DNA of 32,000 bases, taken from Candidatus Saccharimonadota bacterium. GTDB lineage: Bacteria; Patescibacteriota; Patescibacteriia; 2-12-FULL-60-25. The position numbers and the translations under genes are program-made. The notes under the pieces were generated by a model. The model ran no database searches. It had not been told where the DNA came from and saw nothing but the letters and a program-made list of their open reading frames with translations. Location: the NCBI GenBank assembly GCA_022843095.1, contig JALHOH010000001.1:210001-242000 (forward strand), written 5' to 3'. Of this stretch, positions 3,151 to 21,554 are shown piece by piece (positions within the stretch are counted from its first letter, which is position 1; every line of letters begins with the position of its first letter).

Positions 3151-3394
3151 TTCAAGTGACGGGCGTCTCAGGGATGAAAGTGGCCAGAACTACGCAAAGA
3201 TGCGCATTCACAGAACGATGCCATACTGGGTATGTACGTGAAGATTCCGACTTCATGCACATCCTGGACGGCATCGTTCGCCGAAAAGGAGGAAGGAGGG
3301 CGTCGTTGGCCTCGCGATGACCGCGGGACCTCACGACATGGTCTGCCCTGCTTCCGCTCTCCTCGACCTCTCGAGGAACGTTCGTTCGTGTCGT

Positions 3395-6300
3395 ATGTTG
3401 CGCCTTGATTCCTTCCGTGCCCGGGTCCTCGCCTGGAGCCTCGCCGTCTTGTGCGGCGGAGGGATGGTTGTCTGTTCGTTCCTTTTCGCGTCGCGGACCA
3501 TTGCCGCGAACGGGATCAATCGCCAGATCAACTATCAGGCAAAGTTGTTGGATACCACGGGGGCAGCCGTTCCAGACGGAACGTATTCCATTAAGTTTAG
3601 TTTGTATGCCGCCGCATCCGGTGGTACACCGCTTTGGACCGCATCTGGTACCACGGCGACGCCGGTTGCCATGAACGTGAACGTTCAGAATGGATTGTTT
3701 ACGGTGTTGCTGGGCGACACGGCGCTGTCCGCGGGCTCCCAAAATCCATTGAATGACCTCATCAATTGGAATAGCGATAGCCTGTACCTTGGTGTCACGG
3801 TCGGCGCGGATGCAGAAATGACACCGCGTAAACGGTTGGCGAGTACGCCGTACGCGTTTAATGCCGAGCGGTTGCAGGGAATGAGCGCCTCCGGGACGGC
3901 GTTTGGCGCAAATGCGCTGTTTATTGTGAATCAGACGTCCCAGACAGGCGCAACCGGGACGCGTTCTGCATTGGAGATTCGTTCGAGCGGGATGTCGGAT
4001 ACCAACGATTACTTGGTTCGGGGGATCAATTCCTCCAGCACCGTCGTGTTTGAGATCACGCGTCTTGGCGTTGTTTCAAGCTCGGAAGCGTTTGTGTCCA
4101 CGAGCAGTACAGCGACCTCCACCTTCCAGGGGACGGTTTCTTCGACGCGTGGGATTTTTGATCAATACATTTTGGTCAACGGAAAATACGTGTGTCTTGC
4201 GGACGGGACCAACTGTCAGTCGGGCGGTGGGTCTGACGGGAGTTGGACGTACGTGACTGCAAGCGGGATGGTGCGTCTGACTACGTCAACCAATGATGTG
4301 GTCCTTGGCAACACGGCGACCTCCTCTGCCGCAGGTGGCGCGCCCGTGTATTTTGATCTTTCCGGCGGGACGGCGGGAACCTCCAACGTCTATTTTGGGC
4401 ATGCCACACAAACCAATGTCGTCATCGGCGGTACCTCGACAACGGCGCCGCTTCATGGATTGTTTACCATGAACGGGGACGACCTCCTTGTTACGGGCAA
4501 TATCGGGAGTGTGTCGTCGGTCTATACAAATGGCGCATTTGTCGCGGGATCGGGTTCGACCTCATACGGGTCCGGACTCATTTCTTCCGGCGGAACGACG
4601 CCCGTGCTTACGATCACATCTGTGAGTGGGACACGGATGTTTAATGGGATCGATAATTCCTTGGGGGCGGACACGCGGTTCTCTAAGGTCGCATCATCGA
4701 CCATCGTGGCGAGTAATACCACGCCAAAACAGACACTTGTCCGCGATCGTTTGTTGTTTGTTCTTTCGAGCGGTTCAGGTCAAGGGATTCAGATTTATGA
4801 TCTTGCCTCGAGTACCCCTGCGCTTTTGAAGGAGGTAACAATCGCAAACCAAGGAATTTCGCAGCTCGACGTTCAAGGTCGGTACATGTACGTGTATAAC
4901 TACACGAAATTGACGATCTTCGACATCGCGAACCCAAGAAATCCGTTGCAGGTTGGGGAGGTAGGGAGTATGGGAACGAGTTGTTCGTTCCAGGTTGCTG
5001 GAGGGTTCGCGTATGTCATGTGCGGTAGTTATTTCTACATCGTTGATGTTCAGAATCCTGCGAATCCGTTTATTGTTTCCGAGTTTTTCTACAGCAGTGG
5101 TTCTGGTGGATCAGGGGGTGCCATTGTTCGTGGGAATTATGCCTACCTCACGCAAACAAATTCTCCGATCCTTCGCGTGATGGATGTTTCCAATCCTTAC
5201 GCCCCAACGCTTCAATATACCTCTACGACCTCGGCAAGTACGGAACCGGCAGCCATTGCGCTGCAAGGTCAGTATTTATACATCGTGAATCGCGCGACGA
5301 CAGACGGGATCATCAACGTTTATAACGTGGCAAGTTCGACAAGCCCGGTATTTGTCACGAATATCGTCGTCGGAACAAATCTGTCCGATGACTATGGATT
5401 AGTTGTCTCTGGTCGATATTTGTATGTTGCCGCGGAGAACGGAACTATCTACGTCTACGACATCACGACGCCATCATCTGCGTCCCTCGTGCAGACCTTT
5501 GCAACGGGTCAGCAGGTGCCGAATGGGTTGTCCGTGAATGGAACATCACTGTATTCCGTAGACTATGGATCTACGAAATCGTTGAACGTCATCAATCTGA
5601 CGGGGATCGAAACGAACGGGTTGGTCGCGCCGGTTGCGGAACTGGGACGGCTGCAGGTGCAAAACGACGGATTTATCGGAAATCGTTTGGATGTTCTTGG
5701 GTCGATCGCGATCGGTCGTGGGGGGTTGTACTCGGATGGCGCCATCGCGGTTCATGCCTCGGGGACGACGTCGACGATCGTCGGTCGGTTGAATGTGGTC
5801 GGTGGAATCTTCCAGAACGGCGTCCGTGTGTGTCTTGCGGATGGGACAAACTGCACGGGTGGAAGCGGGAGTGATGCGAACTGGACATATGTTGGTGCAA
5901 GCGGATTGGTCCGTCTGACAACCTCGACCAACGATCTCGTGATTGGAAGCACTGCGACTTCAACGGGTGCGCCGATCTATGCCGACCTGTCCGGGTCTAC
6001 GGATGGGACGTCTACCGTGTATTTTGGACATGCGACAAATACCAATGTCGTGATTGGCGGAACATCCACCACACATCCGTTGAACGGGTTGTTCCGGATG
6101 AATGGGGATGATCTATTGGTTACAGGAAATATTGGGAGCGTTTCTTCGGTGTACACAAACGGCGGGTTGGTTGTCGGGACGGACTCCACCTATTACCAGG
6201 ACATGCGCATCACCGGTCGTTCTGCCGGCGTGTTCAAGATCGAGAACGTGCAGGGGGGTGGATCCATCGCATCGATTGTGTTGGATGCCAATACGTCTGG

Positions 6301-9300
6301 ATTGGATCCGATCGCCATTTTTGGCGGACAAAACGGATACAAGTCGTTTATCGACTACACCGGGGATTTTGTGGTCGCCTCTTCGACGCGGTACGAAGAA
6401 ACGCGTATTTATCGCCCCTATAACTCGTTCACGATTACGGCGAGCAGTGGGACGTTTATCAACGATCTTCGCAGCACGGGGCTGAACATCCAGCCACGCG
6501 GCCTCGCAACGACGACCGCGTCCGGCAGTGGGTTGGGAGAAGGTGCTTCTTCCGTTGTCATCAATGGTCGCTACGCGTATGTCGCGAACCAGGCGTCTTC
6601 TTCCGTCAGCGTTGTGGACATTGCGAATCTGGACCGTCCTCGCGTGGTGACGACGACGGCGCTCTCCGCCTTGCCGCGCGCGCTCGCGCTTTCCGGAAAT
6701 ACGTTGTTTGTTGCGGGGGATACGACCGGCGCCTTCTTTACCTTGGATGTCTCCGATCCGGCGAACCCACGTTTGTTGAATACAGTCGGCGGAGGGTCTT
6801 TCTATGATGTCGCCGTCCAAAATGGGTTTGCGTATCTTGCCGATTTCGCAAGCAACGTGGTGCGCGTCTATGACGTGCAAGACCCAACGAACATTGCGGC
6901 TGCAACTACGATCTCTATCACGGCACCACGTGCAGTGAAGGTCGCCGGTCGGTTCTTGTACATCACCAACAATTCGACGTTCTACGTGTACGACATCACG
7001 AATCCGCGTCAGCCCTATGCATTGGGTTCCTATGTCTCGGCGAATACGCTTGAATCCATCGCGATTGATGGCGCGTATGCCTACGTTGGCCGTTCGGGAG
7101 CAACAACGGGGCTTGTGTTGGACATCTCTTCTTCCACGAATCCGACGCTTGCGGGGACGTTCAGCTGTGTGCTCGCGGGCTGTACGGATGTTCAGGTGCA
7201 TGGACGGTATTTGTATGCCGCCACGACGGGGTATGGAACCGGAATCTACATTTTTGATCTAACGGATCCGACCTCACCGGGAGCGTTGTCCTTCGCAAGT
7301 CCTCTTACAGACGATTACACGAATGATATCGCCATTTCCGGTCGCTATGCGTTTGTTGCGCTGTCTTCTGCTGCGAACCAAACCGGAACTTCAACGCTCA
7401 AGATCTTTGACTTGGGTGGGATCGAAACGACGGGACTTGTGGCACATGCCGCGGAAGTCGGGTCGTTGCAGGTTCGTGGAGATGGATTTGTCGGAAACCA
7501 TTTTGATGTCATGGGATCGCTTGGTGTTGGACGTGGCGGGATCGCCTCCGAAGGAGCTCTTGTCGTGATGGCGACGGGCACCACGTCGACGTTTCAGGGT
7601 CGCTTGAATGTGATCGGTGGGCTGTTCCAAAACGGTGTCCGCGTCTGTCTTGCAGATGGGACGAACTGTCAGGTGGGAGGTGGCGGGGGTGGCAGCGACA
7701 GCAACTGGACCGAAGTGGCGGCAAGCGGGTTTGTCCGCCTGACGACCTCGACCTATGACGTGGTCATGGGGAGTACGGCAACGTCGACGGGTGCGCCGGT
7801 GTACTTCGATCTTTCCGGAGGAATCGATAATGTGTCCTCCACCGTGTACTTCGGCCACGGAACGGGCACGGATGTCGTGATTGGTGGAACCTCGACCACG
7901 GAATCCGGATTGCATCCGCTTTTCACCATGAACGGGAATGATCTGCTGGTCATGGGGAATATCGGCAGCGTCTCTTCGGTGTACACAAACGGCGCGTTTG
8001 TCGCAGGGACGGGTTCTGTCTTCTATGGCGCAAACGGCATCACCGCGACGACGGGGACGAATTTCACATTGAATTCCGTAAGTGGAACGCGGATGGTCGG
8101 TGGAATGACGGAAGAGTGGAATAACGCGAGTCCGGCAGAAATCACGGCGTATGCGGAAGGTCCCGCCTCTTCGTACCTCACGCGCATTGCCTATCGGTAT
8201 CCGTATGCGTTTGTGAATGATACGGCTTGGCAGCGGTTGTATGTCTTCCATATTGCCGGTCCTTCCTCTACGCGGTTAGTGACCTCTACGGAATGGTCGG
8301 TCTATGGATTTAGCGATGCAGCCGACATGGCCGTTGAGGGAAACACGTTGGTGGTGGTTGGAGCGAAGGCGCACAAGTTTGATATTTCAGACCCGGTTAA
8401 CCCGCGCTATGTCGCGTCTTCCGCACAAAACCTGAACGCGAATGCGGTGAAGATTCAAGGAGGATATGCCTACATCCTTGATACCAATGGCGCGGATTCT
8501 AAGTTCTTCGTCGTGAGTTTGCAGAATACGACGCCGACCGTGGTCGGAACGATTGGAGGGATGAATTCTGCAGCACATTTGACGGTACTGGATGGGCGTG
8601 TCGCCGTGTTAGGAAATCCATTCTTCGTTGGGCAGCCACTTTCGATCATCGATGTAAAGAATCCGTTGAATCCAGTCATCACCATGACATCGTCAACGGT
8701 GGAGACCTCACAGGCGCATGGGATGACATCAAAGGATGGGTATATCTATACCGCATTCTATACGTCTACCGGTCAGAATAAGATTCTCGTTTGGGATACG
8801 CATCATCCGACAGACGTTCGTGTCGTGAATGAAATTACGACGCAGTCCGCAGGGATGCAGTATCCGGAAAACCTCACGATTGCCGATCGATACTTGTACT
8901 ACGTGAACGAGAATTACGATATCGAAATCTTCGATATCTCGAGCTCAACGAATGCCTACCCGGTTAGAACGATTCTTGGAAACGGAAACTCTGCAGCAGA
9001 GAGTGCGGTTGGGGTGTTCGGAGATTTGCTCACGTTCGGGAACACGAACAATCGTTTCAACGTCATGGATATCGGAGGGATTGATGCGATTGGGATTCGC
9101 GCGGGATCCGCGAATGTGGGGCGGTTGCAGGTGCTCGGTCCCTCAGTCTTTAATGGTCAGGTTTCTATCAATGGAGGGTTGCAAGTTGGATATGGCGGGA
9201 TCTTTTCTGAAGGTGTCTTGTCTGCCGCGTTGTTGAACATCACAACGACGGCGACGGTGAAGAATTTGGACTTGCAAAAGTCCTTTAGCCAAGTGTTGTC

Positions 9301-12300
9301 GACATCGACGTATACGCTTTTAGATGAAACGACTTTCGCAGCAGATTCAAATCTTCGCATGGATGTGGAAGGGAATACGGTCGCGATGAATCGATACGTA
9401 AATTCCGACATTCTTCTCTACGATATTTCAGAGCCGACGCAGATTCGTCAGATGGGAACGACGACGATTTCAAGTGGGGCGTTTCCGGTCGCCATTTCGC
9501 AGAACATGGTGTATACCGGAGACTATAATTTTGGTCAGCGTTATGCGATCGATATTCGGAATCCTCAAGCTCCGTATATTGCGCAAACCGTCAACCAGTC
9601 AGGAGGTCCTTACTCCATGGAAGTCGTTGGTTCTTTCTTGTATGTCGCCGACGGGGATAGCTTTGACGTCTATTCGATCGGCGCTTCCTCGACGTTATCC
9701 TTGGTGAGTAAGTATTCGGTCGGCTGGGGGCAGCCAAATAGCGTGAAGGTCCGAAATGGGGTTGCGTATGTTGTCGAGCGTGTCTCAAACGAAATGTACG
9801 TGTTTGATGTGCAGAATGGATCAAGCACCCTTGTAAAGGTGTTAACGGGCCTTACGAATCCGGAACAAATTACAATTCGTGATCGAGCGTTGTTTGTTGC
9901 GGGGAGCACGGTGTTGCAGGCATTCGATATTACCGACCCCTACAACCCGATTGGGATGTCGACGACGACCGAACAGTTATCCGGGGTCGTCTCCGTGGAT
10001 GTTGCGGGGAACACCTTGTTCGTGGGTGATCAGGATGGGATTGAAGTCTTTGACGTCACTTCCGCTTCTGCAACGCGTCACATTACGCGCCTTAGTGATT
10101 TCTCTACACAGCGCCAAGTGCGGGTCGTTGGAAACATCTTGGTTGAACAGACGGGAAGTCGCATTCGGTTGTATGACATCGGCGGCATCAGTGTGCATGG
10201 ATTGCGCGCGGATTCCGGGGAATTTGGTCGCCTGCATGTGGAGCAAGATGGAGTATTTGCCAATCGTGTAGTGATTCATGGCGGCCTCTCGGTCGGTGAG
10301 CATGGGATCTATTCGGAAGGGCCGATTCAGTCCGGTGGGTTGTTCGTGAACGCCGGAGGGTATCTCTCCATGGGTTCTTCTACCTTCACGGTGTCCTCGA
10401 CGGCGGGGACGGTGTTGGTGAGCGCGTCTACCACGTCGCCTACATTCCGCGTCGTTAATGAGGCGACCTATATCGCAACCGGGACGGACGGTGGGGAATG
10501 GGGCGCATATATCAACTCCTTGCTTGTTGGACCGAATGAATATTCGACCGGGTCACGCGATTACGCCATGGTTGTGCGGTATAACTCGAACGCTGGATCA
10601 GACGGGATTTGTATTGCCCAGCTTTCGGAGACGTGTCCCTACGCCTCTTCGACACAGGTGACGTCGCTCATTGCGGATGCGGCGATCGTGGCGAACGGGT
10701 TTGACCTTGCAGAAGCCTACATGGCGACGGGAACGACGGTGAATGGCGATATTCTCGAGTTTGACTCGATGCAGACGACCTATGTTCGCCGCTCGTCTAC
10801 GCCCTACAGCACTCGGATCGCCGGGATTCGTTCGACGGCGCCGGGGATGGTGCTTGGGTTGGATGGGGTGAACGTCGCACTGACGGGGCGTGTGCCGACC
10901 AAGGTGTCCGTGGTGAACGGAGCGATTCAGGCCGGGGACCCGCTGACGACGTCGGAGTATCCAGGGTATGCGATGAAGGCTACGAAGCCGGGGATGATCG
11001 TCGGGTATGCACTGGAACCGGCATCGACGACCTCGACCATCGAAGTCTTCGTCAAAGTCGGATTTGAAGCGCGCATGGCGATTGGGGTGAACGCGAGTGG
11101 AACGGTGGCCCAAATCACGGATGACTTCGTGGTGCAGGCGACCTCAACGGCAAGCGCAGGCAATCCGAACGTCTCGTCGTGGGGGATCGCCTTCCGCGGT
11201 TCCAGCTGGAACGGATCGCAGGCCATCACGAAAGATTTTACCTTGCAAACGCAGGTCTTGAACGCCACGAATTCGCAGTTTGTCGTGAAGACGCCGAGCT
11301 CGACCGCTGGGATCGCGGTCACGGAATCCGGTGATCTGAAGGTAGGCGGAAAGCTCTTTCCGTCAGCTGCCGGAACGATGCAGGGAGATAAGTACATCTT
11401 CTTGGACACGTCCGGTGGGCCTACGACGACCTACATGGCGACCAACGCCGATGGGTGGCAGGCCAACACGTCCTACGACTTCGCGGAACGCTATTATTCG
11501 CCGGATCATTTGGAACCAGGAGACCTGGTCGTGATCAGTCGCACGGGTCGTCTGCATGTGCAGCGCTCCTTCAATGGCGATGGGATGCTTGCGGGGATCG
11601 TGTCCACAAAACCGGCCTTTATCGCCGGGGCGCCTGCAACCAGCACCTATCCGATTGCGCTCGCAGGACGTGTGCCGACCAAGGTGTCGACCTTGAATGG
11701 ATCGATCAAGATTGGGGACTGGCTCGCGCCGTCCACCATCCCGGGTGTTGCGGTGAAGGCGTTGAAAGCCGGGGCGGTCGTGGGTCAGGCGCTGGAAGAT
11801 TATGACGCGCCGTCCGTGGGCAAGATCGAAGTGTTTGTGAAAGCGACGTATTGGGCGGGCCCAGAAGCGCCAGTCGAGGAAGTGGTGGCATCGACACCGT
11901 CGACGGGGTTTGCCCCGCAGTCCGGATTGGCCTACATGTTGGCCGGCCAGAAGTCCGTGCGTGTGACGTATGCATCCGTCGGAAACTACCCATTGATTCA
12001 GGTGACGCCGTATGGGTCAGTGGATGGCGGATGGTACATCACGAAGCCGTCGGATAGCGGATTTACCTTGAACTTCCATCAGGTGCAGCAATCGGACATT
12101 GTCATCGCTTGGACGGTCACGCCCACGATGAACGGTCAGCTCATGCATGTCTCTGATGGAACGTATGGGCAGTTGAATCCGACGACCGGTTCCTTGGACC
12201 CTTCGGGGGCCACGGAAACGACGCCAGAACCGGCTCCCGCTCCAGTCGCACCGGTTCAACCAGTTTCTTCGCCACCGACAGAACCAGCGGTAACGGCTGA

Positions 12301-12457
12301 TCCAGCACCTTCCCCATTGCCTTCAACGTCCGTTGAAACGGAACCCACGGTGACGGAAACACCGTTGGTGAGTGAACCGGTCCCGGAAACCGGTCCATCC
12401 ACCTCGGGCTCCGAACCAGCGGCGGCTGAAGAACTCGCACCTTCTACATCCCTATAG
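3395..12457 (+). CDS. Giant secreted modular surface protein A (~3020 aa): signal peptide, INYQ-type N-terminal domain, 3 stalk modules, 4 LVIVD-type 7-bladed propellers, tandem Peptidase_G2-like C-terminal domains, Pro-rich tail
   Basis: This is an uninterrupted 9.1-kb ORF; the longest version starts at 3317. ATG 3395 gives MLRLDSFRARVLAWSLAVLCGGGMVVCSFLFASRTIA|ANGINRQINYQAKL, which is collinear with the N-terminus of paralog B and has an AXA-type cleavage site. An AGGAGG pair at 3287-3299 lies 17 nt before ATG 3317, so the start is ambiguous. The stop is TAG at 12455-12457. Confidence 0.9.
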   Translation: MLRLDSFRARVLAWSLAVLCGGGMVVCSFLFASRTIAANGINRQINYQAKLLDTTGAAVPDGTYSIKFSLYAAASGGTPLWTASGTTATPVAMNVNVQNGLFTVLLGDTALSAGSQNPLNDLINWNSDSLYLGVTVGADAEMTPRKRLASTPYAFNAERLQGMSASGTAFGANALFIVNQTSQTGATGTRSALEIRSSGMSDTNDYLVRGINSSSTVVFEITRLGVVSSSEAFVSTSSTATSTFQGTVSSTRGIFDQYILVNGKYVCLADGTNCQSGGGSDGSWTYVTASGMVRLTTSTNDVVLGNTATSSAAGGAPVYFDLSGGTAGTSNVYFGHATQTNVVIGGTSTTAPLHGLFTMNGDDLLVTGNIGSVSSVYTNGAFVAGSGSTSYGSGLISSGGTTPVLTITSVSGTRMFNGIDNSLGADTRFSKVASSTIVASNTTPKQTLVRDRLLFVLSSGSGQGIQIYDLASSTPALLKEVTIANQGISQLDVQGRYMYVYNYTKLTIFDIANPRNPLQVGEVGSMGTSCSFQVAGGFAYVMCGSYFYIVDVQNPANPFIVSEFFYSSGSGGSGGAIVRGNYAYLTQTNSPILRVMDVSNPYAPTLQYTSTTSASTEPAAIALQGQYLYIVNRATTDGIINVYNVASSTSPVFVTNIVVGTNLSDDYGLVVSGRYLYVAAENGTIYVYDITTPSSASLVQTFATGQQVPNGLSVNGTSLYSVDYGSTKSLNVINLTGIETNGLVAPVAELGRLQVQNDGFIGNRLDVLGSIAIGRGGLYSDGAIAVHASGTTSTIVGRLNVVGGIFQNGVRVCLADGTNCTGGSGSDANWTYVGASGLVRLTTSTNDLVIGSTATSTGAPIYADLSGSTDGTSTVYFGHATNTNVVIGGTSTTHPLNGLFRMNGDDLLVTGNIGSVSSVYTNGGLVVGTDSTYYQDMRITGRSAGVFKIENVQGGGSIASIVLDANTSGLDPIAIFGGQNGYKSFIDYTGDFVVASSTRYEETRIYRPYNSFTITASSGTFINDLRSTGLNIQPRGLATTTASGSGLGEGASSVVINGRYAYVANQASSSVSVVDIANLDRPRVVTTTALSALPRALALSGNTLFVAGDTTGAFFTLDVSDPANPRLLNTVGGGSFYDVAVQNGFAYLADFASNVVRVYDVQDPTNIAAATTISITAPRAVKVAGRFLYITNNSTFYVYDITNPRQPYALGSYVSANTLESIAIDGAYAYVGRSGATTGLVLDISSSTNPTLAGTFSCVLAGCTDVQVHGRYLYAATTGYGTGIYIFDLTDPTSPGALSFASPLTDDYTNDIAISGRYAFVALSSAANQTGTSTLKIFDLGGIETTGLVAHAAEVGSLQVRGDGFVGNHFDVMGSLGVGRGGIASEGALVVMATGTTSTFQGRLNVIGGLFQNGVRVCLADGTNCQVGGGGGGSDSNWTEVAASGFVRLTTSTYDVVMGSTATSTGAPVYFDLSGGIDNVSSTVYFGHGTGTDVVIGGTSTTESGLHPLFTMNGNDLLVMGNIGSVSSVYTNGAFVAGTGSVFYGANGITATTGTNFTLNSVSGTRMVGGMTEEWNNASPAEITAYAEGPASSYLTRIAYRYPYAFVNDTAWQRLYVFHIAGPSSTRLVTSTEWSVYGFSDAADMAVEGNTLVVVGAKAHKFDISDPVNPRYVASSAQNLNANAVKIQGGYAYILDTNGADSKFFVVSLQNTTPTVVGTIGGMNSAAHLTVLDGRVAVLGNPFFVGQPLSIIDVKNPLNPVITMTSSTVETSQAHGMTSKDGYIYTAFYTSTGQNKILVWDTHHPTDVRVVNEITTQSAGMQYPENLTIADRYLYYVNENYDIEIFDISSSTNAYPVRTILGNGNSAAESAVGVFGDLLTFGNTNNRFNVMDIGGIDAIGIRAGSANVGRLQVLGPSVFNGQVSINGGLQVGYGGIFSEGVLSAALLNITTTATVKNLDLQKSFSQVLSTSTYTLLDETTFAADSNLRMDVEGNTVAMNRYVNSDILLYDISEPTQIRQMGTTTISSGAFPVAISQNMVYTGDYNFGQRYAIDIRNPQAPYIAQTVNQSGGPYSMEVVGSFLYVADGDSFDVYSIGASSTLSLVSKYSVGWGQPNSVKVRNGVAYVVERVSNEMYVFDVQNGSSTLVKVLTGLTNPEQITIRDRALFVAGSTVLQAFDITDPYNPIGMSTTTEQLSGVVSVDVAGNTLFVGDQDGIEVFDVTSASATRHITRLSDFSTQRQVRVVGNILVEQTGSRIRLYDIGGISVHGLRADSGEFGRLHVEQDGVFANRVVIHGGLSVGEHGIYSEGPIQSGGLFVNAGGYLSMGSSTFTVSSTAGTVLVSASTTSPTFRVVNEATYIATGTDGGEWGAYINSLLVGPNEYSTGSRDYAMVVRYNSNAGSDGICIAQLSETCPYASSTQVTSLIADAAIVANGFDLAEAYMATGTTVNGDILEFDSMQTTYVRRSSTPYSTRIAGIRSTAPGMVLGLDGVNVALTGRVPTKVSVVNGAIQAGDPLTTSEYPGYAMKATKPGMIVGYALEPASTTSTIEVFVKVGFEARMAIGVNASGTVAQITDDFVVQATSTASAGNPNVSSWGIAFRGSSWNGSQAITKDFTLQTQVLNATNSQFVVKTPSSTAGIAVTESGDLKVGGKLFPSAAGTMQGDKYIFLDTSGGPTTTYMATNADGWQANTSYDFAERYYSPDHLEPGDLVVISRTGRLHVQRSFNGDGMLAGIVSTKPAFIAGAPATSTYPIALAGRVPTKVSTLNGSIKIGDWLAPSTIPGVAVKALKAGAVVGQALEDYDAPSVGKIEVFVKATYWAGPEAPVEEVVASTPSTGFAPQSGLAYMLAGQKSVRVTYASVGNYPLIQVTPYGSVDGGWYITKPSDSGFTLNFHQVQQSDIVIAWTVTPTMNGQLMHVSDGTYGQLNPTTGSLDPSGATETTPEPAPAPVAPVQPVSSPPTEPAVTADPAPSPLPSTSVETEPTVTETPLVSEPVPETGPSTSGSEPAAAEELAPSTSL
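4190..4550 (+). repeat. Stalk (S) module copy A1, ~120 aa
   Basis: The translation reads YVCLADGTNCQSGGGSDGSWTYVTASGMVRLTTSTNDVVLGNTATS...VYFGHATQTNVVIGGTSTT.PLHGLFTMNGDDLLVTGNIGSVSSVYTNGAFVAG. The first Cys codon is at 4193. Confidence 0.9.
4733..5606 (+). other. Propeller block A-P1: seven LVIVD-type blades
   Basis: Seven ~40-aa units of the form G.Y.YV......L.[IV].D[IV]..P..P. Examples are GRYMYVYNYTKLTIFDIANPRNP, GGFAYVMCGSYFYIVDVQNPANP, GNYAYLTQTNSPILRVMDVSNPYAP and GRYLYVAAENGTIYVYDITTPSS. Confidence 0.75.
5828..6179 (+). repeat. Stalk (S) module copy A2
   Basis: The translation reads RVCLADGTNCTGGSGSDANWTYVGASGLVRLTTSTNDLVIGSTATSTGAPIYADLSGSTDGTSTVYFGHATNTNVVIGGTSTTHPLNGLFRMNGDDLLVTGNIGSVSSVYTNGGLVVG. 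The first Cys codon is at 5831. Confidence 0.9.
6535..7430 (+). other. Propeller block A-P2: seven LVIVD-type blades (closest counterpart of B-P1)
   Basis: Blades include GRYAYVANQASSSVSVVDIANLDRP, GNTLFVAGDTTGAFFTLDVSDPANP, NGFAYLADFASNVVRVYDVQDPTN, GRFLYITNNSTFYVYDITNPRQP, GAYAYVGRSGATTGLVLDISSSTNP, GRYLYAATTGYGTGIYIFDLTDPTSP and GRYAFVALSS...TLKIFDLGG. Confidence 0.8.
7643..8008 (+). repeat. Stalk (S) module copy A3
   Basis: The translation reads RVCLADGTNCQVGGGGGGSDSNWTEVAASGFVRLTTSTYDVVMGSTATSTGAPVYFDLSGG...VYFGHGTGTDVVIGGTSTTESGLHPLFTMNGNDLLVMGNIGSVSSVYTNGAFVAG. The first Cys codon is at 7646. Confidence 0.9.
8165..9078 (+). other. Propeller block A-P3: seven more divergent LVIVD-type blades
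   Basis: Blades include GNTLVVVGAKAHKFDISDPVNP, GGYAYILDTNGADSKFFVVSLQNTTP, DGRVAVLGNPFFVGQPLSIIDVKNPLNP, DGYIYTAFYTSTGQNKILVWDTHHPTD, DRYLYYVNENYDIEIFDISSSTN and GDLLTFGNTNNRFNVMDIGG. Confidence 0.7.
9350..10186 (+). other. Propeller block A-P4: seven LVIVD-type blades
   Basis: Blades include GNTVAMNRYVNSDILLYDISEPTQ, QNMVYTGDYNFGQRYAIDIRNPQAP, GSFLYVADGDSFDVYSIGASST, NGVAYVVERVSNEMYVFDVQNGSS, DRALFVAGSTVLQAFDITDPYNP, GNTLFVGDQDGIEVFDVTSAS and GNILVEQTGSRIRLYDIGG. Confidence 0.7.
10700..11070 (+). other. Peptidase_G2-like (phage pre-neck-appendage intramolecular-chaperone-like) domain, copy A-1
   Basis: The translation reads FDLAEAYMATGTTVNGDILEFDSMQTTYVRRSSTPYSTRIAGIRSTAPGMVLG...VALTGRVPTKVSVVNGAIQAGDPLTTSEYPGYAMKA. 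It follows the recalled G2 pattern ADYAEYFE...G.FV.L.G..I....DYILGVVS..PSV.G...VGMMGKL.V.DDG...V.G.C....G. The match is by motif recollection only. Confidence 0.45.
11474..11855 (+). other. Peptidase_G2-like domain, copy A-2
   Basis: The translation reads YDFAERYYSPDHLEPGDLVVISRTGRLHVQRSFNGDGMLAGIVSTKPAFIAGAPATSTYPIALAGRVPTKVSTLNGSIKIGDWLAPSTIPGVAVKA...GKIEVFVKATYW. Confidence 0.45.
12200..12454 (+). repeat. Pro/Thr/Glu/Ser-rich low-complexity C-terminal tail of giant protein A
   Basis: The translation reads PSGATETTPEPAPAPVAPVQPVSSPPTEPAVTADPAPSPLPSTSVETEPTVTETPLVSEPVPETGPSTSGSEPAAAEELAPSTSL. Confidence 0.9.
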
Positions 12458-12559: not shown

Positions 12560-15500
12560 ATGCGTGTGTCTCATCTTTTTGCGCGTGCGAGCAGCGTATT
12601 TGCCGCCGCCATCCTCGGCGTCTCTTTGGTTTTGTCTGGCCTCATCCAGTTCGGCGAAGTAGAGGCAGCAAATGGCATCAATCGTCAGATCAACTATCAG
12701 GCAAAATTGTCCGACAGTTCTGGATTTCCGGTAGCAGACGGTCAATATGCCATTAAGTTTAGTTTGTACGCCGCTGCATCCGGTGGAACGCCGCTTTGGA
12801 CCGCATCCGGAACCACGGCATCACCGAACGCGGTAACAACCACCTTGCGAAACGGGTTGTTCACGGTGCTGCTTGGGGATACTTCTGCCTCCGGTGGTTC
12901 TCAAAATCCCCTGAACGACCTCATCGATTGGAATAGCGATAGTTTGTATCTTGGAGTCACGATCGGGACCGATAGCGAAATGACCCCGCGCAAGCGCCTC
13001 GCGAGCACGCCGTACGCCTTCAATGCAGAACGGTTGCAGGGGATGAGCGCCTCCGGGACGGCGTTTGGCACCTCTTCACAGTTCGTGGTGAATCAAACGT
13101 CTCAAACGGCGGCGACCGGAACCCGCTCTGCGTTAGAAGTGCGTTCAAGCGGGATCTCAGACGCAAATGATTTTCTCATTCGTGGGATTAATTCTTCCGG
13201 AACCGCGGCTTTTCAGGTGAATCGGCAAGGGAATGTCACGACCACCGGGTATATCGTGTCCACAAGCACCGCGACCTCCACGTTCTACGGCGCCGTTTCA
13301 TCCAGTCGTGGGGTGTTTGATCAATCCTTGCAGGTAAATGGACAGCTTGTGTGTTTGGCGGATGGAACCAACTGTCAGCCTGCAAGCGGTGATTCGAACT
13401 GGGCATACAACGCGTCCGGTGGGTTGGTGCGTCTCACAACCTCGACGAATGATCTTGTGCTGGGAAGCACGGCGACCTCGACTGGTGCACCGATCTACGC
13501 AGATTTGTCCGGCGGTACTGCGGGAACCTCAACCGTGTATTTTGGCCATGCGACAAACACAAATGTCGTCATTGGTGGAACATCTACGACGCAATCTGGG
13601 TTGAATGACTTGTTTACCATGAACGGGAACGATCTTCTCGTCACGGGAAATATTGGCAGCGTTTCTTCGGTGTACACGAATGGTGCTTTCGTCGCAGGGA
13701 CGAACTCGACGTACTACCAAGACATGGGGATCGTTGCTTCTGGAACCGGGTTCTACGTTATCCGTAATCACAAGGATTGGCCGGGTCCGTCGGGAGCCAT
13801 TGTCATGGATGCGGACGCGCCGACGCAGGATTACATCACGATTTTTAGCACGCAGGGACAATTTGTCTCGTATGTCGATTACACCGGTGCGTACGTGGTC
13901 GGATCGTCTACGACGTATGGTGCTACGGATATTACGCGTCAATATGGGGCATTCACGTTGAATGCCGGAAGTGGGACGTATGTGAATGATTTGCGCAGCA
14001 CGTCGTATCGGGTAGAACGGCGTGGATCGATTTCGACCTCACCGGCCATCACTGGAGGTGGAATCGGGGCGGGCGGGACGGCGCTTGCGGTGTCTGGCCG
14101 GTATGCGTTTGTTGCAAATCGCACCTCATCTTCCATTTCGGTCATCGACGTCTCGAATCCGGATGCCCCGAAACAGGTCACGACCACCGCACTTTCGGCG
14201 CAACCGCGCGATCTGACCGTGGTTGGGAATACGTTATATGTCGCGGGAGATTCAACCGGAGCCTTCTTTACATTGGATATCTCCGATCCGGCGCGTCCGC
14301 GATTGTTGGATTCTGTGGGGGCGGGGAGTCTCTATAGCGTGAGTGTTCAGGGAGGGTATGCCTACACGGCGGATTTTGGGAGTAACTTTATCCGTGTGTA
14401 TGACGTCTCGAATCCAACGGACATTTTGACTGCAACCTCCGTTTCCGTATCGGCGCCACGCGCGGTACTTGCGCTGGGAAAATTCCTCTATGCCGTAAAT
14501 GGAAGCAACTTTTTCATCTACGACATCAGCGTCCCACATGCGCCTGTCTTGATGGGAACGTATGCGAGTGCCGGAACGCTGGAATCCATCGATATCGATG
14601 GTCGTTATGCGTATGTCGGGCGATCGGGGGCGACATCTGGTCTTATTCTAGATATCGCAAGCTCAACGAATCCCTACGCAGTAGGTTCTCTGGATTGTTT
14701 TCCAACCGGATGTACGGATGTAGCGGCGCACGGACGGTTTGTGTACACCAATCGTACGAGTGATGGTTTTGGCTTCCGTATTTTCGATGTGCTGGATCCA
14801 ACCTCTCCCCAAACAATCACGTTTACCAACCCGCTCGTGTCCGGATACATGAATGATGTGGTGGTGAGCGGACGGTATCTGTATGCGCTTCGTTCCTTCG
14901 ACAACGTCGAAACAGGAACGTCGTCACTGACGATTGTTGATCTTGGGGGGATTGAGGCGGCAACGCTCGCAGCGCATTCCGCGGAAGTCGGAAAACTCCA
15001 GGTGCGGACGGATGGATTTGTCGGGAATCATTTGGATGTGATGGGATCGCTCGCCGTTGGACGTGGAGGAATTCAAACGGACGGACCGTTGTCGGTCAGC
15101 GCAACCGGAACAACCTCGACCATTCAAGGGGCGTTGAACGTATTTGGCGGATTGTTTCAGGGAGGCGTTCGTGTGTGTCTCGCGGATGGAACAAACTGTC
15201 AGGCAGGTGGCGGAAGTGACTCGAATTGGACCTACGTTGGAGCAACGGGTCTGGTGCGTTTGACGACCTCGACGAACGACCTGGTGATTGGGAGCACGGC
15301 GACCTCGACCGGCGCACCGATCTATGCAGATTTGTCCGGAGGAACGGCCGGAACGTCGAACATCTATTTTGGTCACGCCACCAATACAAACGTGATTCTT
15401 GGCGGAACCTCCACGACACATCCTCTGAACGCCATGTTCACCATGAATGGCGATGATTTCTTGGTGACTGGAAATATTGGAAGCGTGTCGTCGGTGTATA

Positions 15501-18500
15501 CGAACGGAAACTTTGTGGCTGGGAACGGAACGAGCGTAAATATCGGAGGTGCAGGGATGTTCATGACCGGTTCTCAGTATGTCTATACAGTGACCGGCGA
15601 ATCCGCTGAACTCTCAAATCCCTCGCATTTGTTTGTATCGACGGATGGCAACCAGAGAGACGTTGCGCATTTCCTACATCAGCCATCAGGAAACCGCACT
15701 CGATTTGCCTATGATGGAAGTATCTATGCTGATGGATACGTTACAAGCTCCCAAGGATTCCGCGTTGGGAATGTCACGCTCGGCGCGACAACGCTTTCGC
15801 CTTCCGTCGGAAGTTACACCATCAGTTCTCCAAGCGGGACGATCATTAACGATATCCGAAGTCGTGGCTATAACATGGTAAAACGGGGAGCGGTGACCTT
15901 TGACGGATCATTGGGTGGGTCAGTCGACGCCGGGAAGATCCTCGTCTCGGGTAGAAATGCCTTTATTGCGAACAAGACCTCGGGCACCGTAAGCATCGTA
16001 GATATTCAGGATCCGGATGCCCCGCGGTTCGTGACCTCGACCTACGTCGTGGCCGGTGCCGGTGATGAGGTCCGAAATATCCGGACGGACGGGAAATATC
16101 TCTATGCGGGGACAAATGTCGGAACCGTTCGGATCTTTGATGTTCGTGCACCAGGGCAACCGGTGTTTGTAGGGTCCGCAACGCTCACGAGCGCAGGGAC
16201 GGTAACGGCGATCGAGGTCCAAGGGAACTCGCTCTACGCCATCTTGGGGGGAGGGGTGCTTGAAACCTTTGATGTCAGTAATCGAGCAAGTCCCGTCCTC
16301 ACGAGCTCGACGACGTCGCTTGTCGCGGGTCGTGATTTGGTGGCGGTTGGTGGACGTCTCTATATTGGTGGCGACGATTATTTCTCTGTTTTCTCACTGG
16401 ACAACCCACGCGCGCCACAGCTGCTCGCGCTTTTGCCGACTCCCGGGGTATCCAACTTCTATCTGGCAGCGCAGGGGAGTTATGTCTACACCGTAGACAT
16501 TTTTACCGTGACAAGCTCGGTCTACGACGTTTCCAGTTCCACGAATCCGTTCCGTGCCGCAGTGTATTCTACGCAAGGGCGTATCTCGCTTGCAGGCCGA
16601 ACGGCATATAGTCCGGCGTTGGAAACGTCTCGGATGCGCATCATGGATGTGACGGATCCGTATGATATCGACGGATCGCCCTCCTCTACGATTCAGATCG
16701 ATGCGACTCATACGGTGAAAGATGTGATGCCACAGGGGCGTTACGCGTATGTCCTTAGTGCGGCGAATAGTACCAATGGGCCAAATACGCTAACCGTGGT
16801 CGATGTGGGCGGAGTTGATACGAGTAATCTGACGGCAGATGTGGCTCAGCTCGGATGGCTCGATGTTTCTTCCGACGGGTTTATCTCGAACGATTTGTTT
16901 GTCGGTGGAGCGATTTCCGCAGGTCAAGGATTAAGTGTTGGCGGATCTTTCTCCGTGGTCGCCTCTAGTACCTCCAGCACGGCAAAGTTCGTGAACACCG
17001 CCTCGTTTTCAGATGGAAACCAGAATACAGGCGGAACAGAATGGGGGGCCTATATCAACTCGCTTCTTGTAGGGAGTAAGGAGAACGCAACGGGTTCGCG
17101 TGATTATGCGATGGTCGTGAATTATCGATCGAGTGGCGGTACGAGCGATGGGGTGTGTATTTCTCAAGATTCGCTTTTCTGCCCGTATTCGTCTTCCACG
17201 CAGGTTGTTTCACTGATTACGGACAGAGCCATTGTTTCAGACGGGTTTGACCTCGCGGAACTGTATCCATCATCGGGTGCAGTTGAACCGGGTGATGTCT
17301 TGGTTCTGGATTCGATGGCCTCAACCACGGTGCGACGTGCTCCGGGTGTGCAATACGATCCGCAGCTGATCGGGGTGTATTCCACGCGTCCGGCATTTCA
17401 ATTGGGGGCAACGGGAGGGATTCCGGTCGCACTCACAGGGCGCGTTCCGACCAAGGTTTCTGCTGTGAATGGGGCGGTAAGTATTGGTGATGCGCTTACC
17501 TCTTCGCCTTTTGCAGGGTACGCGATGAAGGCGACCAAACCCGGAAAGATTCTTGGATATGCGTTGGAGTCCGCGGCTGTAACCTCGACAATTGAAGCGT
17601 TCGTGAATGTCGGATATTCAGGCGGCCGAACATTGGCCGTGGATGCGACCGGACAGATTGCACAATTGCAGGATCACCTGTTCGTCGCCCCGACCACCAC
17701 CGCAAGTGCGGGCAATCCATTTGTTGGATCGTGGGCACTTACCTTCCGCGGGAGCGCGTGGGATGGGTCACAGGCGGTGGATCGGGACTTTGCCTTCGCG
17801 AATGAAGTGCTGTCCGCAACATCCGCGCGGTTGACCTTGCGCGGCCCGTCCTCGTCACAGGTTTTCAGCGTGGATGAATCCGGAAACGCGCGCGTGAGTC
17901 AGGATTTGTTGATCGGTGGCAAGTTGTATCCCTCTGCGGCAGGGTCGATGCAGAGCGACAAATACATCTTCTTGGACACGTCCGGTGGACCATCCTCGAC
18001 CTACATGGCGACGAATGCGGACGGATGGCAGGCCAACACCTCCTACGACTTCGCGGAACGGTACTACTCGCCGGATGCGCTTGAACCGGGAGATCTGGTC
18101 GTCGCGTCCGATCGCGGTCGGTTGCACGTCCAGCGTTCCTTGGACGAAAAGACGCCACTCCTTGGGATCGTCTCCACTAAACCGGCATTCATCGCCGGGG
18201 CACCTGCGACCAGTACCTACCCGATCGCGCTCGCCGGTCGTGTGCCGACCAAGGTGTCGACCATGAAGGGGGCGGTGAAAATCGGTGATCCGCTTGCGCC
18301 GTCAACCATTCCGGGGATCGCGGTCAAGGCAAAGGAATCCGGTCCGATCGTTGGGTACGCCCTGGAAGCCTATGACGGAGTCGGTATTGGGAAGATCGAG
18401 GTATTCGTAAATCCAGGATATTGGGGCAAACCGGATGAACCGACGACGCCTGCTGCGGATGCGAATGTCACGGTCACGAAGTCAGGAAGCGGCTATCGCG

Positions 18501-18985
18501 GTTTTGCCACGATTACCGCCGGGATGAAGCGGGTACGCGTGACCTATCCTTCCATCCATAGCTATCCAAACGTCCAGGTAACGCCACGCGGATCGGTCGA
18601 TGGAGGATGGTGGACGGATCATTACTCAGACGTCGGATTCGACATTCTCTTCCGTGACGCGCAGTTGCACGATGTCACCTTCTCCTGGCGCGTGGATGTG
18701 ACAGAAGATGGCCAAACGGTCTTCTTCTCGGACGGAACGACGGCGCCGATTGATCCATTAACCGGTCAGGCGGTGAATGGCGGGGAGCCAGAACCTGTTG
18801 CGCCACCGGTCGCACCCGCGCCTGCTCCTAGCGCTGTTCAGCCGGAGCCCGTTCCAGAAGAGCCAGCCGTCGAAGAAGAGACGCCTGTTGTTCCGGAACC
18901 GGTTGTTGTTCTGCCAACACCGGTCGAAGTCACGACAGAGGTGCCGGTCGAGCCGCTTACGCCGCCGACCGAGCCAGCCCCATAA
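12560..18985 (+). CDS. Giant secreted modular surface protein B (2141 aa), paralog of A: signal peptide, INYQ-type N-terminal domain, 2 stalk modules, 2 LVIVD-type 7-bladed propellers, tandem Peptidase_G2-like domains, Pro/Glu-rich tail
   Basis: This is an uninterrupted 6.4-kb ORF. Its N-terminus is MRVSHLFARASSVFAAAILGVSLVLSGLIQFGEVEA|ANGINRQINYQAKL. It is collinear with A over the first ~290 aa and over the ~600-aa C-terminal region upstream of the Pro-rich tail. The stop is TAA at 18983-18985. Confidence 0.92.
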   Translation: MRVSHLFARASSVFAAAILGVSLVLSGLIQFGEVEAANGINRQINYQAKLSDSSGFPVADGQYAIKFSLYAAASGGTPLWTASGTTASPNAVTTTLRNGLFTVLLGDTSASGGSQNPLNDLIDWNSDSLYLGVTIGTDSEMTPRKRLASTPYAFNAERLQGMSASGTAFGTSSQFVVNQTSQTAATGTRSALEVRSSGISDANDFLIRGINSSGTAAFQVNRQGNVTTTGYIVSTSTATSTFYGAVSSSRGVFDQSLQVNGQLVCLADGTNCQPASGDSNWAYNASGGLVRLTTSTNDLVLGSTATSTGAPIYADLSGGTAGTSTVYFGHATNTNVVIGGTSTTQSGLNDLFTMNGNDLLVTGNIGSVSSVYTNGAFVAGTNSTYYQDMGIVASGTGFYVIRNHKDWPGPSGAIVMDADAPTQDYITIFSTQGQFVSYVDYTGAYVVGSSTTYGATDITRQYGAFTLNAGSGTYVNDLRSTSYRVERRGSISTSPAITGGGIGAGGTALAVSGRYAFVANRTSSSISVIDVSNPDAPKQVTTTALSAQPRDLTVVGNTLYVAGDSTGAFFTLDISDPARPRLLDSVGAGSLYSVSVQGGYAYTADFGSNFIRVYDVSNPTDILTATSVSVSAPRAVLALGKFLYAVNGSNFFIYDISVPHAPVLMGTYASAGTLESIDIDGRYAYVGRSGATSGLILDIASSTNPYAVGSLDCFPTGCTDVAAHGRFVYTNRTSDGFGFRIFDVLDPTSPQTITFTNPLVSGYMNDVVVSGRYLYALRSFDNVETGTSSLTIVDLGGIEAATLAAHSAEVGKLQVRTDGFVGNHLDVMGSLAVGRGGIQTDGPLSVSATGTTSTIQGALNVFGGLFQGGVRVCLADGTNCQAGGGSDSNWTYVGATGLVRLTTSTNDLVIGSTATSTGAPIYADLSGGTAGTSNIYFGHATNTNVILGGTSTTHPLNAMFTMNGDDFLVTGNIGSVSSVYTNGNFVAGNGTSVNIGGAGMFMTGSQYVYTVTGESAELSNPSHLFVSTDGNQRDVAHFLHQPSGNRTRFAYDGSIYADGYVTSSQGFRVGNVTLGATTLSPSVGSYTISSPSGTIINDIRSRGYNMVKRGAVTFDGSLGGSVDAGKILVSGRNAFIANKTSGTVSIVDIQDPDAPRFVTSTYVVAGAGDEVRNIRTDGKYLYAGTNVGTVRIFDVRAPGQPVFVGSATLTSAGTVTAIEVQGNSLYAILGGGVLETFDVSNRASPVLTSSTTSLVAGRDLVAVGGRLYIGGDDYFSVFSLDNPRAPQLLALLPTPGVSNFYLAAQGSYVYTVDIFTVTSSVYDVSSSTNPFRAAVYSTQGRISLAGRTAYSPALETSRMRIMDVTDPYDIDGSPSSTIQIDATHTVKDVMPQGRYAYVLSAANSTNGPNTLTVVDVGGVDTSNLTADVAQLGWLDVSSDGFISNDLFVGGAISAGQGLSVGGSFSVVASSTSSTAKFVNTASFSDGNQNTGGTEWGAYINSLLVGSKENATGSRDYAMVVNYRSSGGTSDGVCISQDSLFCPYSSSTQVVSLITDRAIVSDGFDLAELYPSSGAVEPGDVLVLDSMASTTVRRAPGVQYDPQLIGVYSTRPAFQLGATGGIPVALTGRVPTKVSAVNGAVSIGDALTSSPFAGYAMKATKPGKILGYALESAAVTSTIEAFVNVGYSGGRTLAVDATGQIAQLQDHLFVAPTTTASAGNPFVGSWALTFRGSAWDGSQAVDRDFAFANEVLSATSARLTLRGPSSSQVFSVDESGNARVSQDLLIGGKLYPSAAGSMQSDKYIFLDTSGGPSSTYMATNADGWQANTSYDFAERYYSPDALEPGDLVVASDRGRLHVQRSLDEKTPLLGIVSTKPAFIAGAPATSTYPIALAGRVPTKVSTMKGAVKIGDPLAPSTIPGIAVKAKESGPIVGYALEAYDGVGIGKIEVFVNPGYWGKPDEPTTPAADANVTVTKSGSGYRGFATITAGMKRVRVTYPSIHSYPNVQVTPRGSVDGGWWTDHYSDVGFDILFRDAQLHDVTFSWRVDVTEDGQTVFFSDGTTAPIDPLTGQAVNGGEPEPVAPPVAPAPAPSAVQPEPVPEEPAVEEETPVVPEPVVVLPTPVEVTTEVPVEPLTPPTEPAP
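13349..13699 (+). repeat. Stalk (S) module copy B1
   Basis: The translation reads LVCLADGTNCQPASGDSNWAYNASGGLVRLTTSTNDLVLGSTATSTGAPIYADLSGGTAGTSTVYFGHATNTNVVIGGTSTTQSGLNDLFTMNGNDLLVTGNIGSVSSVYTNGAFVAG. The first Cys codon is at 13352. Confidence 0.9.
14070..14950 (+). other. Propeller block B-P1: seven LVIVD-type blades
   Basis: Blades include GRYAFVANRTSSSISVIDVSNPDAP, GNTLYVAGDSTGAFFTLDISDPARP, GGYAYTADFGSNFIRVYDVSNPTD, GKFLYAVNGSNFFIYDISVPHAP, GRYAYVGRSGATSGLILDIASSTNP, GRFVYTNRTSDGFGFRIFDVLDPTSP and GRYLYALRSF...SLTIVDLGG. Confidence 0.8.
15173..15523 (+). repeat. Stalk (S) module copy B2
   Basis: The translation reads RVCLADGTNCQAGGGSDSNWTYVGATGLVRLTTSTNDLVIGSTATSTGAPIYADLSGGTAGTSNIYFGHATNTNVILGGTSTTHPLNAMFTMNGDDFLVTGNIGSVSSVYTNGNFVAG. 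The first Cys codon is at 15176. Confidence 0.9.
15930..16813 (+). other. Propeller block B-P2: seven LVIVD-type blades
   Basis: Blades include GRNAFIANKTSGTVSIVDIQDPDAP, GKYLYAGTNVGTVRIFDVRAPGQP, GNSLYAILGGGVLETFDVSNRASP, GGRLYIGGDDYFSVFSLDNPRAP, GSYVYTVDIFTVTSSVYDVSSSTNP, GRTAYSPALETSRMRIMDVTDPYD and GRYAYVLSAA...TLTVVDVGG. Confidence 0.75.
17246..17617 (+). other. Peptidase_G2-like domain, copy B-1
   Basis: The translation reads FDLAELYPSSGAVEPGDVLVLDSMASTTVRRAPGVQYDPQLIGVYSTRPAFQLGATGGIPVALTGRVPTKVSAVNGAVSIGDALTSSPFAGYAMKA. Confidence 0.45.
18044..18424 (+). other. Peptidase_G2-like domain, copy B-2
   Basis: The translation reads YDFAERYYSPDALEPGDLVVASDRGRLHVQRSLDEKTPLLGIVSTKPAFIAGAPATSTYPIALAGRVPTKVSTMKGAVKIGDPLAPSTIPGIAVKA...GKIEVFVNPGYW. 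Confidence 0.45.
18780..18982 (+). repeat. Pro/Glu/Val-rich low-complexity C-terminal tail of giant protein B
   Basis: The translation reads GGEPEPVAPPVAPAPAPSAVQPEPVPEEPAVEEETPVVPEPVVVLPTPVEVTTEVPVEPLTPPTEPAP. Confidence 0.9.
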
Positions 18986-19011
18986 CCACCCGCCCGCGCG
19001 GGTGGTTTTTG
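18984..19011 (+). terminator. Strong Rho-independent terminator after giant gene B
   Basis: A perfect 8-bp GC-rich stem, CCACCCGC (18986-18993) / GCGGGTGG (18998-19005), closes a 4-nt loop (CCGC). TTTTT follows at 19006-19010. Confidence 0.85.
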
Positions 19012-19050
19012 ATCCCACCGGACCCGTGGTATGATGCGAAGGATCTCCGT

Positions 19051-21549: not shown

Positions 21550-21554
21550 TCCCT

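Follow-up and report, generated by a model that had tools for sequence, protein, structure and literature searches.

Paired compact G2/D4-like domains near the C-termini of two giant proteins in a Saccharimonadota genome

Background

Why should two neighbouring giant proteins of a bacterium each carry, near the C-terminus, a pair of domains resembling the one with which a phage tail spike aligns its three chains? The question is raised by a 32,000-nucleotide stretch of DNA from Candidatus Saccharimonadota bacterium (GenBank assembly GCA_022843095.1, contig JALHOH010000001.1, positions 210,001 to 242,000 of the forward strand), hereafter the window, whose own coordinates are used throughout. 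The window encodes two giant secreted paralogues on the plus strand, protein A (3046 amino acids, aa; 3317..12457) and protein B (2141 aa; 12560..18985), each of which is an uninterrupted open reading frame (ORF). An earlier reading of this DNA, made from the letters alone and referred to here as the sequence-only reading, proposed that each protein carries a tandem pair of units related to the Peptidase_G2 domain (D4) of the phage phi29 pre-neck appendage protein gp12, and that the fibres would be trimeric and self-processing if this relationship were real.

The D4 domain of gp12 is an intramolecular "auto-chaperone" that aligns three chains and is then removed by autoproteolysis. Patescibacteria, also called the candidate phyla radiation (CPR), spend their lives in attachment to other cells, and hardly any annotation exists for their giant surface proteins. 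Here we describe the four units of A and B as a duplicated, compact form of the phage G2/D4 auto-chaperone that occurs in cellular giant proteins and has so far escaped annotation, and we weigh what this variant may do in a position where the phage domain is not found.

Results

The four units

Proteins A and B contain four units of about 125-145 aa, two per protein, near their C-termini. Unit 1 of A is a compact G2/D4-like domain on the plus strand at 10700..11071 (hidden Markov model, HMM, E 2e-51) and opens with FDLAEAY, which begins at aa 2462 and nucleotide (nt) 10700, the FDLAE core spanning aa 2462-2466. Unit 2 of A, of the same compact type, lies on the plus strand at 11474..11860 (HMM E 1e-55) and opens with YDFAERY at aa 2720 and nt 11474 (YDFAE, aa 2720-2724). 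The plus-strand units of B are found at 17246..17626 (HMM E 3e-50), opening with FDLAELY at aa 1563 and nt 17246 (FDLAE, aa 1563-1567), and at 18044..18430 (HMM E 1e-55), opening with YDFAERY at aa 1829 and nt 18044 (YDFAE, aa 1829-1833). The motif starts given in the sequence-only reading proved exact, and a regular expression for its full pattern matched these four units and nothing else in a six-frame translation of the window. Each unit contains GRVPTKVS once.

The unit HMM returned exactly two full copies in A and two in B (E 1e-50 to 1e-56), with no meaningful third copy in either protein. The starts of the two units are separated by 258 aa in A and 266 aa in B, and they lie 585 and 327 aa from the C-terminus of A and 579 and 313 aa from that of B. 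Units 1 and 2 of A are alike at 41% identity (BLASTP E 4e-24). Unit 2 is 76-77% identical between A and B, against 42-49% for the two paralogues as whole proteins. Two minus-strand ORFs, at 10598..11113 and 10927..11409, were taken as mechanical, since they fall wholly within ORF A, which has strong homology support.

Homology to the D4 domain of phi29 gp12

When the C-termini and the isolated units of the window proteins were compared with Pfam by hmmscan, neither Peptidase_G2 (PF11962, at E<=1) nor Peptidase_S74 (PF13884) was matched, so that the hmmscan check put forward by the sequence-only reading came back empty. An NCBIfam scan gave nothing relevant and called no domain at the units of the window proteins, and a phmmer search of the C-terminus against the Protein Data Bank (PDB) yielded a low-complexity DedD match only. 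Unit 1 of A matched Phage_cement_2 (PF09956) with 15 bits (E 0.034), over its second half only and below the gathering score of 24 bits. Matches to PHROG families were weak (phrog_6427, head scaffold, head decoration) and are uninformative beyond hinting at a domain of the beta-tulip type. The link to Peptidase_G2 depends on profiles or on intermediate sequences.

Both were available. Among 209 homologues of the two-unit region, the relatives P0023 (35.9 bits) and P0026 (32.1 bits), which are 39-40% identical, pass the PF11962 gathering score of 25 bits, and they do so on the part that contains D-x-A-E. A unit-family profile was prepared from an alignment of 36 diverse units; PF11962 was the Pfam family most often matched by these units (14 of the 36 at E<=1, best 2.3e-5), and weak PF09956 matches were present in seven. 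Searched against the PDB, the profile found the phi29 pre-neck appendage protein gp12 itself (6qz9/3gqh, E 3.6e-4), the phi29 head-fibre base, which matched the second half of the unit (E 0.0016), and the D4 chaperone domain of Dpo31 (28nb, E 0.018). Alignment of the unit family with gp12 and six Bacillus PF11962 proteins by hhalign gave a Prob of 96.9 and an E-value of 1.9e-10 over 122 columns, with positions 22-153 of the unit paired with 41-213 of the gp12 family, so that the entire unit was covered. A second conserved block, L-x-G-[RQ]-V/I, aligned with LLGQIAVRID of gp12.

The model of unit 2 of A predicted by AlphaFold (AF2) is all-beta and without helices, with a predicted local distance difference test score (pLDDT) of 89.8. 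In Foldseek searches it was matched to 3gqh_A (E 6e-4) and 3suc (E 1.5e-3), both at a template modelling score (TM) of 0.62, and it was also paired with trimeric beta-tulip capsid cement and decoration proteins. Phage proteins in a viral library were matched at TM 0.7-0.8 with 25-38% identity; two matches there carry the name "preneck appendage protein" (TM 0.76-0.81). As modelled, the unit has the all-beta fold of tandem beta-tulips expected of a D4 domain. Profile and structural similarity to a G2-type domain was thus found by hhalign, by Foldseek and through P0023 and P0026, and the relationship to Peptidase_G2 proposed by the sequence-only reading is upheld: we are highly confident that the units are homologous to the gp12 D4 domain. 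They are of the G2 type and not of the S74 type; the latter, named as an alternative chaperone family, is wrong for the units because PF13884 is not matched and the model is all-beta. Given the profile match over the whole unit, the fold match and the literature on the D4 domains of gp12 and Dpo31, each unit is best regarded as one whole compact D4.

The D-x-A-E motif and the gp12 cleavage site

D-x-A-E stands at the N-terminal edge of all four units. The corresponding DlAEay of the profile aligns with residue 1 of 3gqh, the released fragment of gp12 (DFAEYFES), and 3suc, the "pre-mature" uncleaved entry, reads DFAQYFES at the motif, that is, with Gln in place of that Glu. The Glu is invariant among the 36 diverse units, and the Asp and Ala are at least 90% conserved. 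At unit 2 the three residues (Asp2721, Ala2723 and Glu2724 in A) are present in 32 of 32 homologues of the C-terminal cassette, and at unit 1 in 15-16 of 16-17; TNA-x-G just before the motif of unit 2 is also invariant across the 32. The cement proteins aligned to the second half of the unit only and are without D-x-A-E.

The Asp of the motif, singled out by the sequence-only reading as a candidate cleavage position, thereby falls at the first residue of the released phage fragment. In unit 1 of A, the bond that precedes Asp2463 (nt 10703-10705) is the candidate for scission, with Glu2466 (nt 10712-10714) as the candidate catalytic residue. By analogy with gp12, the candidate cuts would fall between F2462 and D2463 and between Y2720 and D2721 in A, and between F1563 and D1564 and between Y1829 and D1830 in B.

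The C-terminal cassette

The units are embedded in a larger cassette, which in the model of A aa 2400-2960 (mean pLDDT 79) runs in the order unit 1, beta linker, unit 2, short disordered spacer, beta-sandwich of about 87 aa and Pro-rich tail. The inter-unit segment of A (11072..11473, plus strand) comprises a beta domain of about 90 aa (pLDDT 60-80) and then an invariant YxxTNAxGW strand running into unit 2; this linker had no match in a Pfam scan and none that was significant in a PDB sequence search. Identity between A and B varies by part: unit 1 is at 59%, the linker at 53% and the last domain at 46%, and the 20 residues just ahead of unit 2 reach 90%.

That last domain, the beta-sandwich after unit 2, is located at 11918..12178 in A (plus strand, pLDDT about 90) and, with approximate limits taken from its alignment to the A domain, at 18497..18754 in B (plus strand). 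It has no Pfam match and no significant PDB sequence match. Its fold is weakly like that of the H-type lectins 2ce6, 3wmp and 4q56 (Foldseek TM about 0.5 on target) and weakly like the C-terminus of the cyanophage Pam1 tailspike (7eea). Sugar binding by this domain, if real, would bear on whether unit 2 is cut off. The plus-strand tails that follow are both acidic, of low complexity and rich in Pro; Thr, Ser, Ala and Glu are also abundant in that of A (12179..12454), and Val, Glu and Thr in that of B (18755..18982). No transmembrane segment and no LPXTG (sortase) motif was seen in either tail.

Family size, spread and domain shuffling

A set of 1.84 billion representative proteins was scanned with the unit profile, and the matches were counted as clusters at 50% identity. 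There were 32,448 such clusters at E<=1e-3 and 6,158 at E<=1e-30. Two full units were present in 140 of the 145 best-scoring representatives and three in the other five; in these 145, which reach lengths of up to 6,814 aa, the median start-to-start spacing was 264 aa and the median tail after the last unit 231 aa. The tandem layout is therefore the standard form of the cellular family, and the rarity attributed to it by the sequence-only reading disappears. No earlier description of the paired-unit family was found in the searchable literature, and a precomputed Pfam domain is lacking in most of the listed relatives of the two-unit region.

The named relatives and related loci belong mostly to Patescibacteria (Uhrbacteria, Magasanikbacteria, Zambryskibacteria, Doudnabacteria and Saccharibacteria). 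Two relatives, P0070 and P0116, are labelled archaeal (Nanoarchaeia and Bathyarchaeia), and another is labelled Acetothermia; these labels could mean that the family has truly reached other lineages with small cells or an episymbiotic habit, or that contigs were mis-binned.

The domains that accompany the units differ between relatives. A collagen triple helix was found in P0077, upstream of the unit, and in P0092, and YadA-type repeats were found in P0118. Collagen triple helices and YadA-type repeats are obligate trimers. In P0029 a Peptidase_S74 domain stands where unit 1 would be, and in P0088 and P0102 it comes after a unit. In P0023, Kelch repeats replace the LVIVD beta-propellers that are present in both A and B.

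Phage copies of the compact unit

The compact unit was also detected in phages by tblastn, at 34-41% identity, and by fold, at TM 0.7-0.8, in the Pseudomonas jumbo phage PA5oct (gp359), in Phosso of Sinorhizobium (gp292), in Atu_ph07 of Agrobacterium and in CP220/CP20 of Campylobacter. In PA5oct gp359 (locus L010, 1505-2941), whose gene adjoins a tail-fibre gene, and in Phosso gp292 (locus L011, 1064-2944), the unit occupies the extreme C-terminus. The jumbo-phage virion proteins that end in the unit are probably self-processing fibre or spike proteins. The annotations of these unit-ending proteins read "virion structural protein" and "hypothetical protein", and a related record reads "baseplate wedge subunit and tail pin".

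Overall layout of A and B and gene neighbourhood

The public record of ORF A starts at Met8 and has 3039 aa; ORF B is identical to P0137, and the two window proteins are listed as P0135 and P0137 in the unit-profile scan. Both A and B open with a hydrophobic signal-like segment followed by ANGINRQINYQAKL. Probable signal peptides were read from the sequence, by eye in A at about aa 27-63, and in B at aa 1-36, ending in EVEA before ANG. A conserved N-terminal region, ANGINRQINYQAKL…FSLYAAASGGTPLWTASG, follows the signal-like segment at 3395-3900 in A and 12560-13100 in B; aa 1-328 of A, which include it, had no match in a Pfam scan, and the region may be a cell-proximal attachment domain. Further along the chain, a module of about 100 aa running from CLADGTNC to GNIGSVSSVYTNG is present in three copies in A (4193, 5831, 7646) and two in B (13352, 15176). 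This module and the LVIVD beta-propeller regions seem to take turns along the chain, in a beads-on-a-string arrangement.

The neighbouring genes are cellular and encode a LysM/M23 peptidase, a ComM-type Mg-chelatase-like ATPase, PNPase, an NYN protein, a TPR protein and an fn3 surface protein; no phage gene was found within the 32-kb window. Upstream of A, on the same strand, lies a gene for a protein of 1030 aa with fn3, purple-acid-phosphatase-N and CarboxypepD_reg domains (8-3100). Downstream, also on the same strand (19009-22241), an 846-aa TPR protein begins 24 nt past the stop codon of B and is followed by a 228-aa protein without a family. A, B and these same-strand flanking genes may form one surface-protein operon.

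Discussion

The data show the homology of the units to the gp12 D4 domain, their fold and the register of their motif with the gp12 cleavage site. From these, together with the established behaviour of gp12 and Dpo31, we infer trimerisation and cleavage. By analogy, A and B are probably three-chain fibres that assemble in the way of phage tail spikes, and it is likely that they cut themselves in the same manner. The giant proteins would be exported via Sec, as their signal peptides suggest, and the C-terminal cassette (unit 1, beta linker, unit 2, beta-sandwich and acidic Pro-rich tail) would leave the cell last. The two D4-like units would then trimerise, bringing the three exported chains into register, and would nucleate folding of the three-chain fibre from the C-terminus towards the N-terminus, with two successive checkpoints. 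After trimerisation, the bond before the Asp of D-x-A-E would be cut with the help of the Glu of the motif. The collagen and YadA-type segments of relatives and the exchanges with S74 provide a context that supports a trimeric chaperone. Taking export, trimerisation, C-to-N folding and cleavage before Asp together, we lean towards this complete mechanism with modest confidence.

Several points weigh against it. The window sequences have no Pfam Peptidase_G2 match, and an insertion of about 50 aa that separates the two halves of the domain in the gp12 family is absent from the units. The beta-tulip fold is shared with capsid cement proteins that are not cleaved. Unlike the phage copies at the C-terminus, the units are internal and have conserved folded domains downstream, so that no unit of A or B is placed at the extreme C-terminus where it could simply be removed; a cut at unit 1 would cost the protein a long conserved region together with unit 2 and the C-terminal domain, which makes a "cut and throw away" scheme doubtful. 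Xiang and co-workers reportedly found in 2009 that ATP is needed for release of the gp12 D4 domain. ATP is absent outside the cell.

Some of these points would suit an alternative in which the units are D4 homologues that no longer cut and have been retained as beta-tulip trimerisation or "clamp" modules holding the distal tip, made up of the linker domain and the C-terminal beta-sandwich, in threefold symmetry. The internal position of the units, the conserved domains beyond them, the missing gp12 insertion and the fold in common with non-cleaving cement and decoration proteins are all in keeping with it, as is the C-terminal beta-sandwich, which, if its weak likeness to lectins and a tailspike is meaningful, would be expected to remain on the fibre tip. 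The C-terminal auto-chaperone of the P22 tailspike is uncleaved as well (PMC4690869). Such retention is made less likely by the near-invariance of D, A and E in both units of very diverse sequences, in a motif that the cement proteins lack and that stands in exact register with the gp12 cleavage site, and by the finding that the self-cleaving S74 can substitute for unit 1. We consider retained, non-cutting modules possible, but on the unlikely side.

A and B might instead be tail-fibre genes of a phage or prophage, or belong to a phage-derived particle, rather than encode cellular surface proteins. The unit does occur in phage virion proteins, and there are the weak PHROG matches to head-decoration and scaffold families. 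This origin is very improbable, however, as both proteins have signal peptides and LVIVD beta-propellers, the genes reside on a 683,555-bp contig, and the architecture is repeated across many lineages of Patescibacteria; a prophage was rejected on the gene context of the window, in which the neighbours are cellular and phage genes are lacking. Least credible is that an unrelated beta domain has come to carry a similar short motif by chance or by convergence, for although the window sequences have no Pfam G2 match and the PDB profile E-value is just 3.6e-4, the hhalign result extends over 122 columns at E 1.9e-10, the folds match, the intermediates P0023 and P0026 exceed the Pfam threshold, and the second block also aligns with LLGQIAVRID of gp12.

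Returning to trimerisation with cleavage before the Asp, the duplication of the unit invites a further, speculative proposal. The double cassette could be a two-stage, C-to-N "zipper and cut" device, with which Patescibacteria would build trimeric, phage-fibre-like attachment fibres of several thousand residues outside the cell, needing neither ATP nor separate chaperones. The distal piece would be registered and folded first, by unit 2, and unit 1 would then register the main shaft; after the two cuts at D-x-A-E, the distal piece would be either shed or kept, non-covalently bound, as a separate trimeric tip with a lectin-like domain. We put this forward tentatively, and regard it as rather improbable in this specific form. 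If it were true, the cassette-bearing giant proteins of episymbiotic bacteria would be the cellular counterpart of phage tail spikes.

The consequences extend past this locus. If the units act as we propose, thousands of giant proteins acquire a testable prediction, namely three chains, folding that starts at the C-terminus, and processing at a defined bond. That 32,448 clusters match the unit profile while Pfam and NCBIfam call nothing at the units of the window proteins amounts to a sizeable annotation gap. The pairing of the units, their internal position and their interchange with S74 raise the question of why a chain should have two presumably self-cleaving chaperones, and what becomes of the piece between them.

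Comparison with known systems

The closest known system is the D4 domain of phi29 gp12 (PF11962, MEROPS G2; 3GQH, 3GQK, 3SUC, 6QZ9), whose two beta-tulip barrels direct the assembly of trimers (bioRxiv 10.1101/216911; PMC4690869). The units resemble it in their homology over the whole unit, in their all-beta fold and in having halves that resemble single beta-tulip proteins, as well as in the L-x-G-[RQ]-V block and in a D-x-A-E edge whose Asp falls at the start of the released fragment and whose Glu falls at the position mutated in the uncleaved crystal form. They differ from it in being about 50 aa shorter, in scoring below the Pfam threshold, and in occurring twice per chain, about 260 aa apart, away from the C-terminus. 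They are also part of exported cellular beta-propeller proteins of 2,000-3,000 aa, whereas gp12 is a beta-helix spike of a phage, and outside the cell there would be no ATP for a release step that reportedly depends on it. The authors of the gp12 structure had remarked on sequence homology between D4 and some bacterial adhesion proteins (bioRxiv 10.1101/216911), a remark that the present family extends.

The D4 domain of Dpo31, the tail spike of a marine podovirus, starts at Asp664, trimerises alone, serves as an auto-chaperone and was found cut off after expression (PMC13317679). This domain (PDB 28nb) is matched by the unit profile (E 0.018) and shares with the units an Asp at its N-terminal edge, but is present once, at the C-terminal end of a phage depolymerase spike. 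The compact D4-like domains of PA5oct, Phosso, Atu_ph07 and CP220/CP20 are the same compact version as the units; they differ in belonging to phages and not to cells, and in PA5oct gp359 and Phosso gp292 the copy is at the very end of the protein.

Peptidase_S74 (PF13884; endosialidase of K1F, T5 pb1, GA-1 appendage) is a C-terminal trimerising chaperone that is released by cutting itself; it has an elongated shape, in which a short triple coiled-coil is combined with beta-hairpin tentacles, and its catalytic residue is a Ser (PMC4690869). It has the same job and position in the chain as the D4 domain, and is swapped or fused with the units in P0029, P0088 and P0102. Its sequence and fold are unrelated to those of the units, it has no match in the window, and in the relatives it forms a separate neighbouring domain. 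The beta-tulip cement and decoration proteins and the base of the phi29 head fibre, gp8.5 (PF09956/DUF2190; 6QYY, 8HDT, 8PKH, 9OCB), are trimers with a matching fold and a weak sequence match to the second half of the unit, G-x-I-x-x-GD-x-L…PG-x-A-x-KA. These proteins bind capsids, are uncleaved and are without the D-x-A-E strand, whereas the unit has in addition an N-terminal half.

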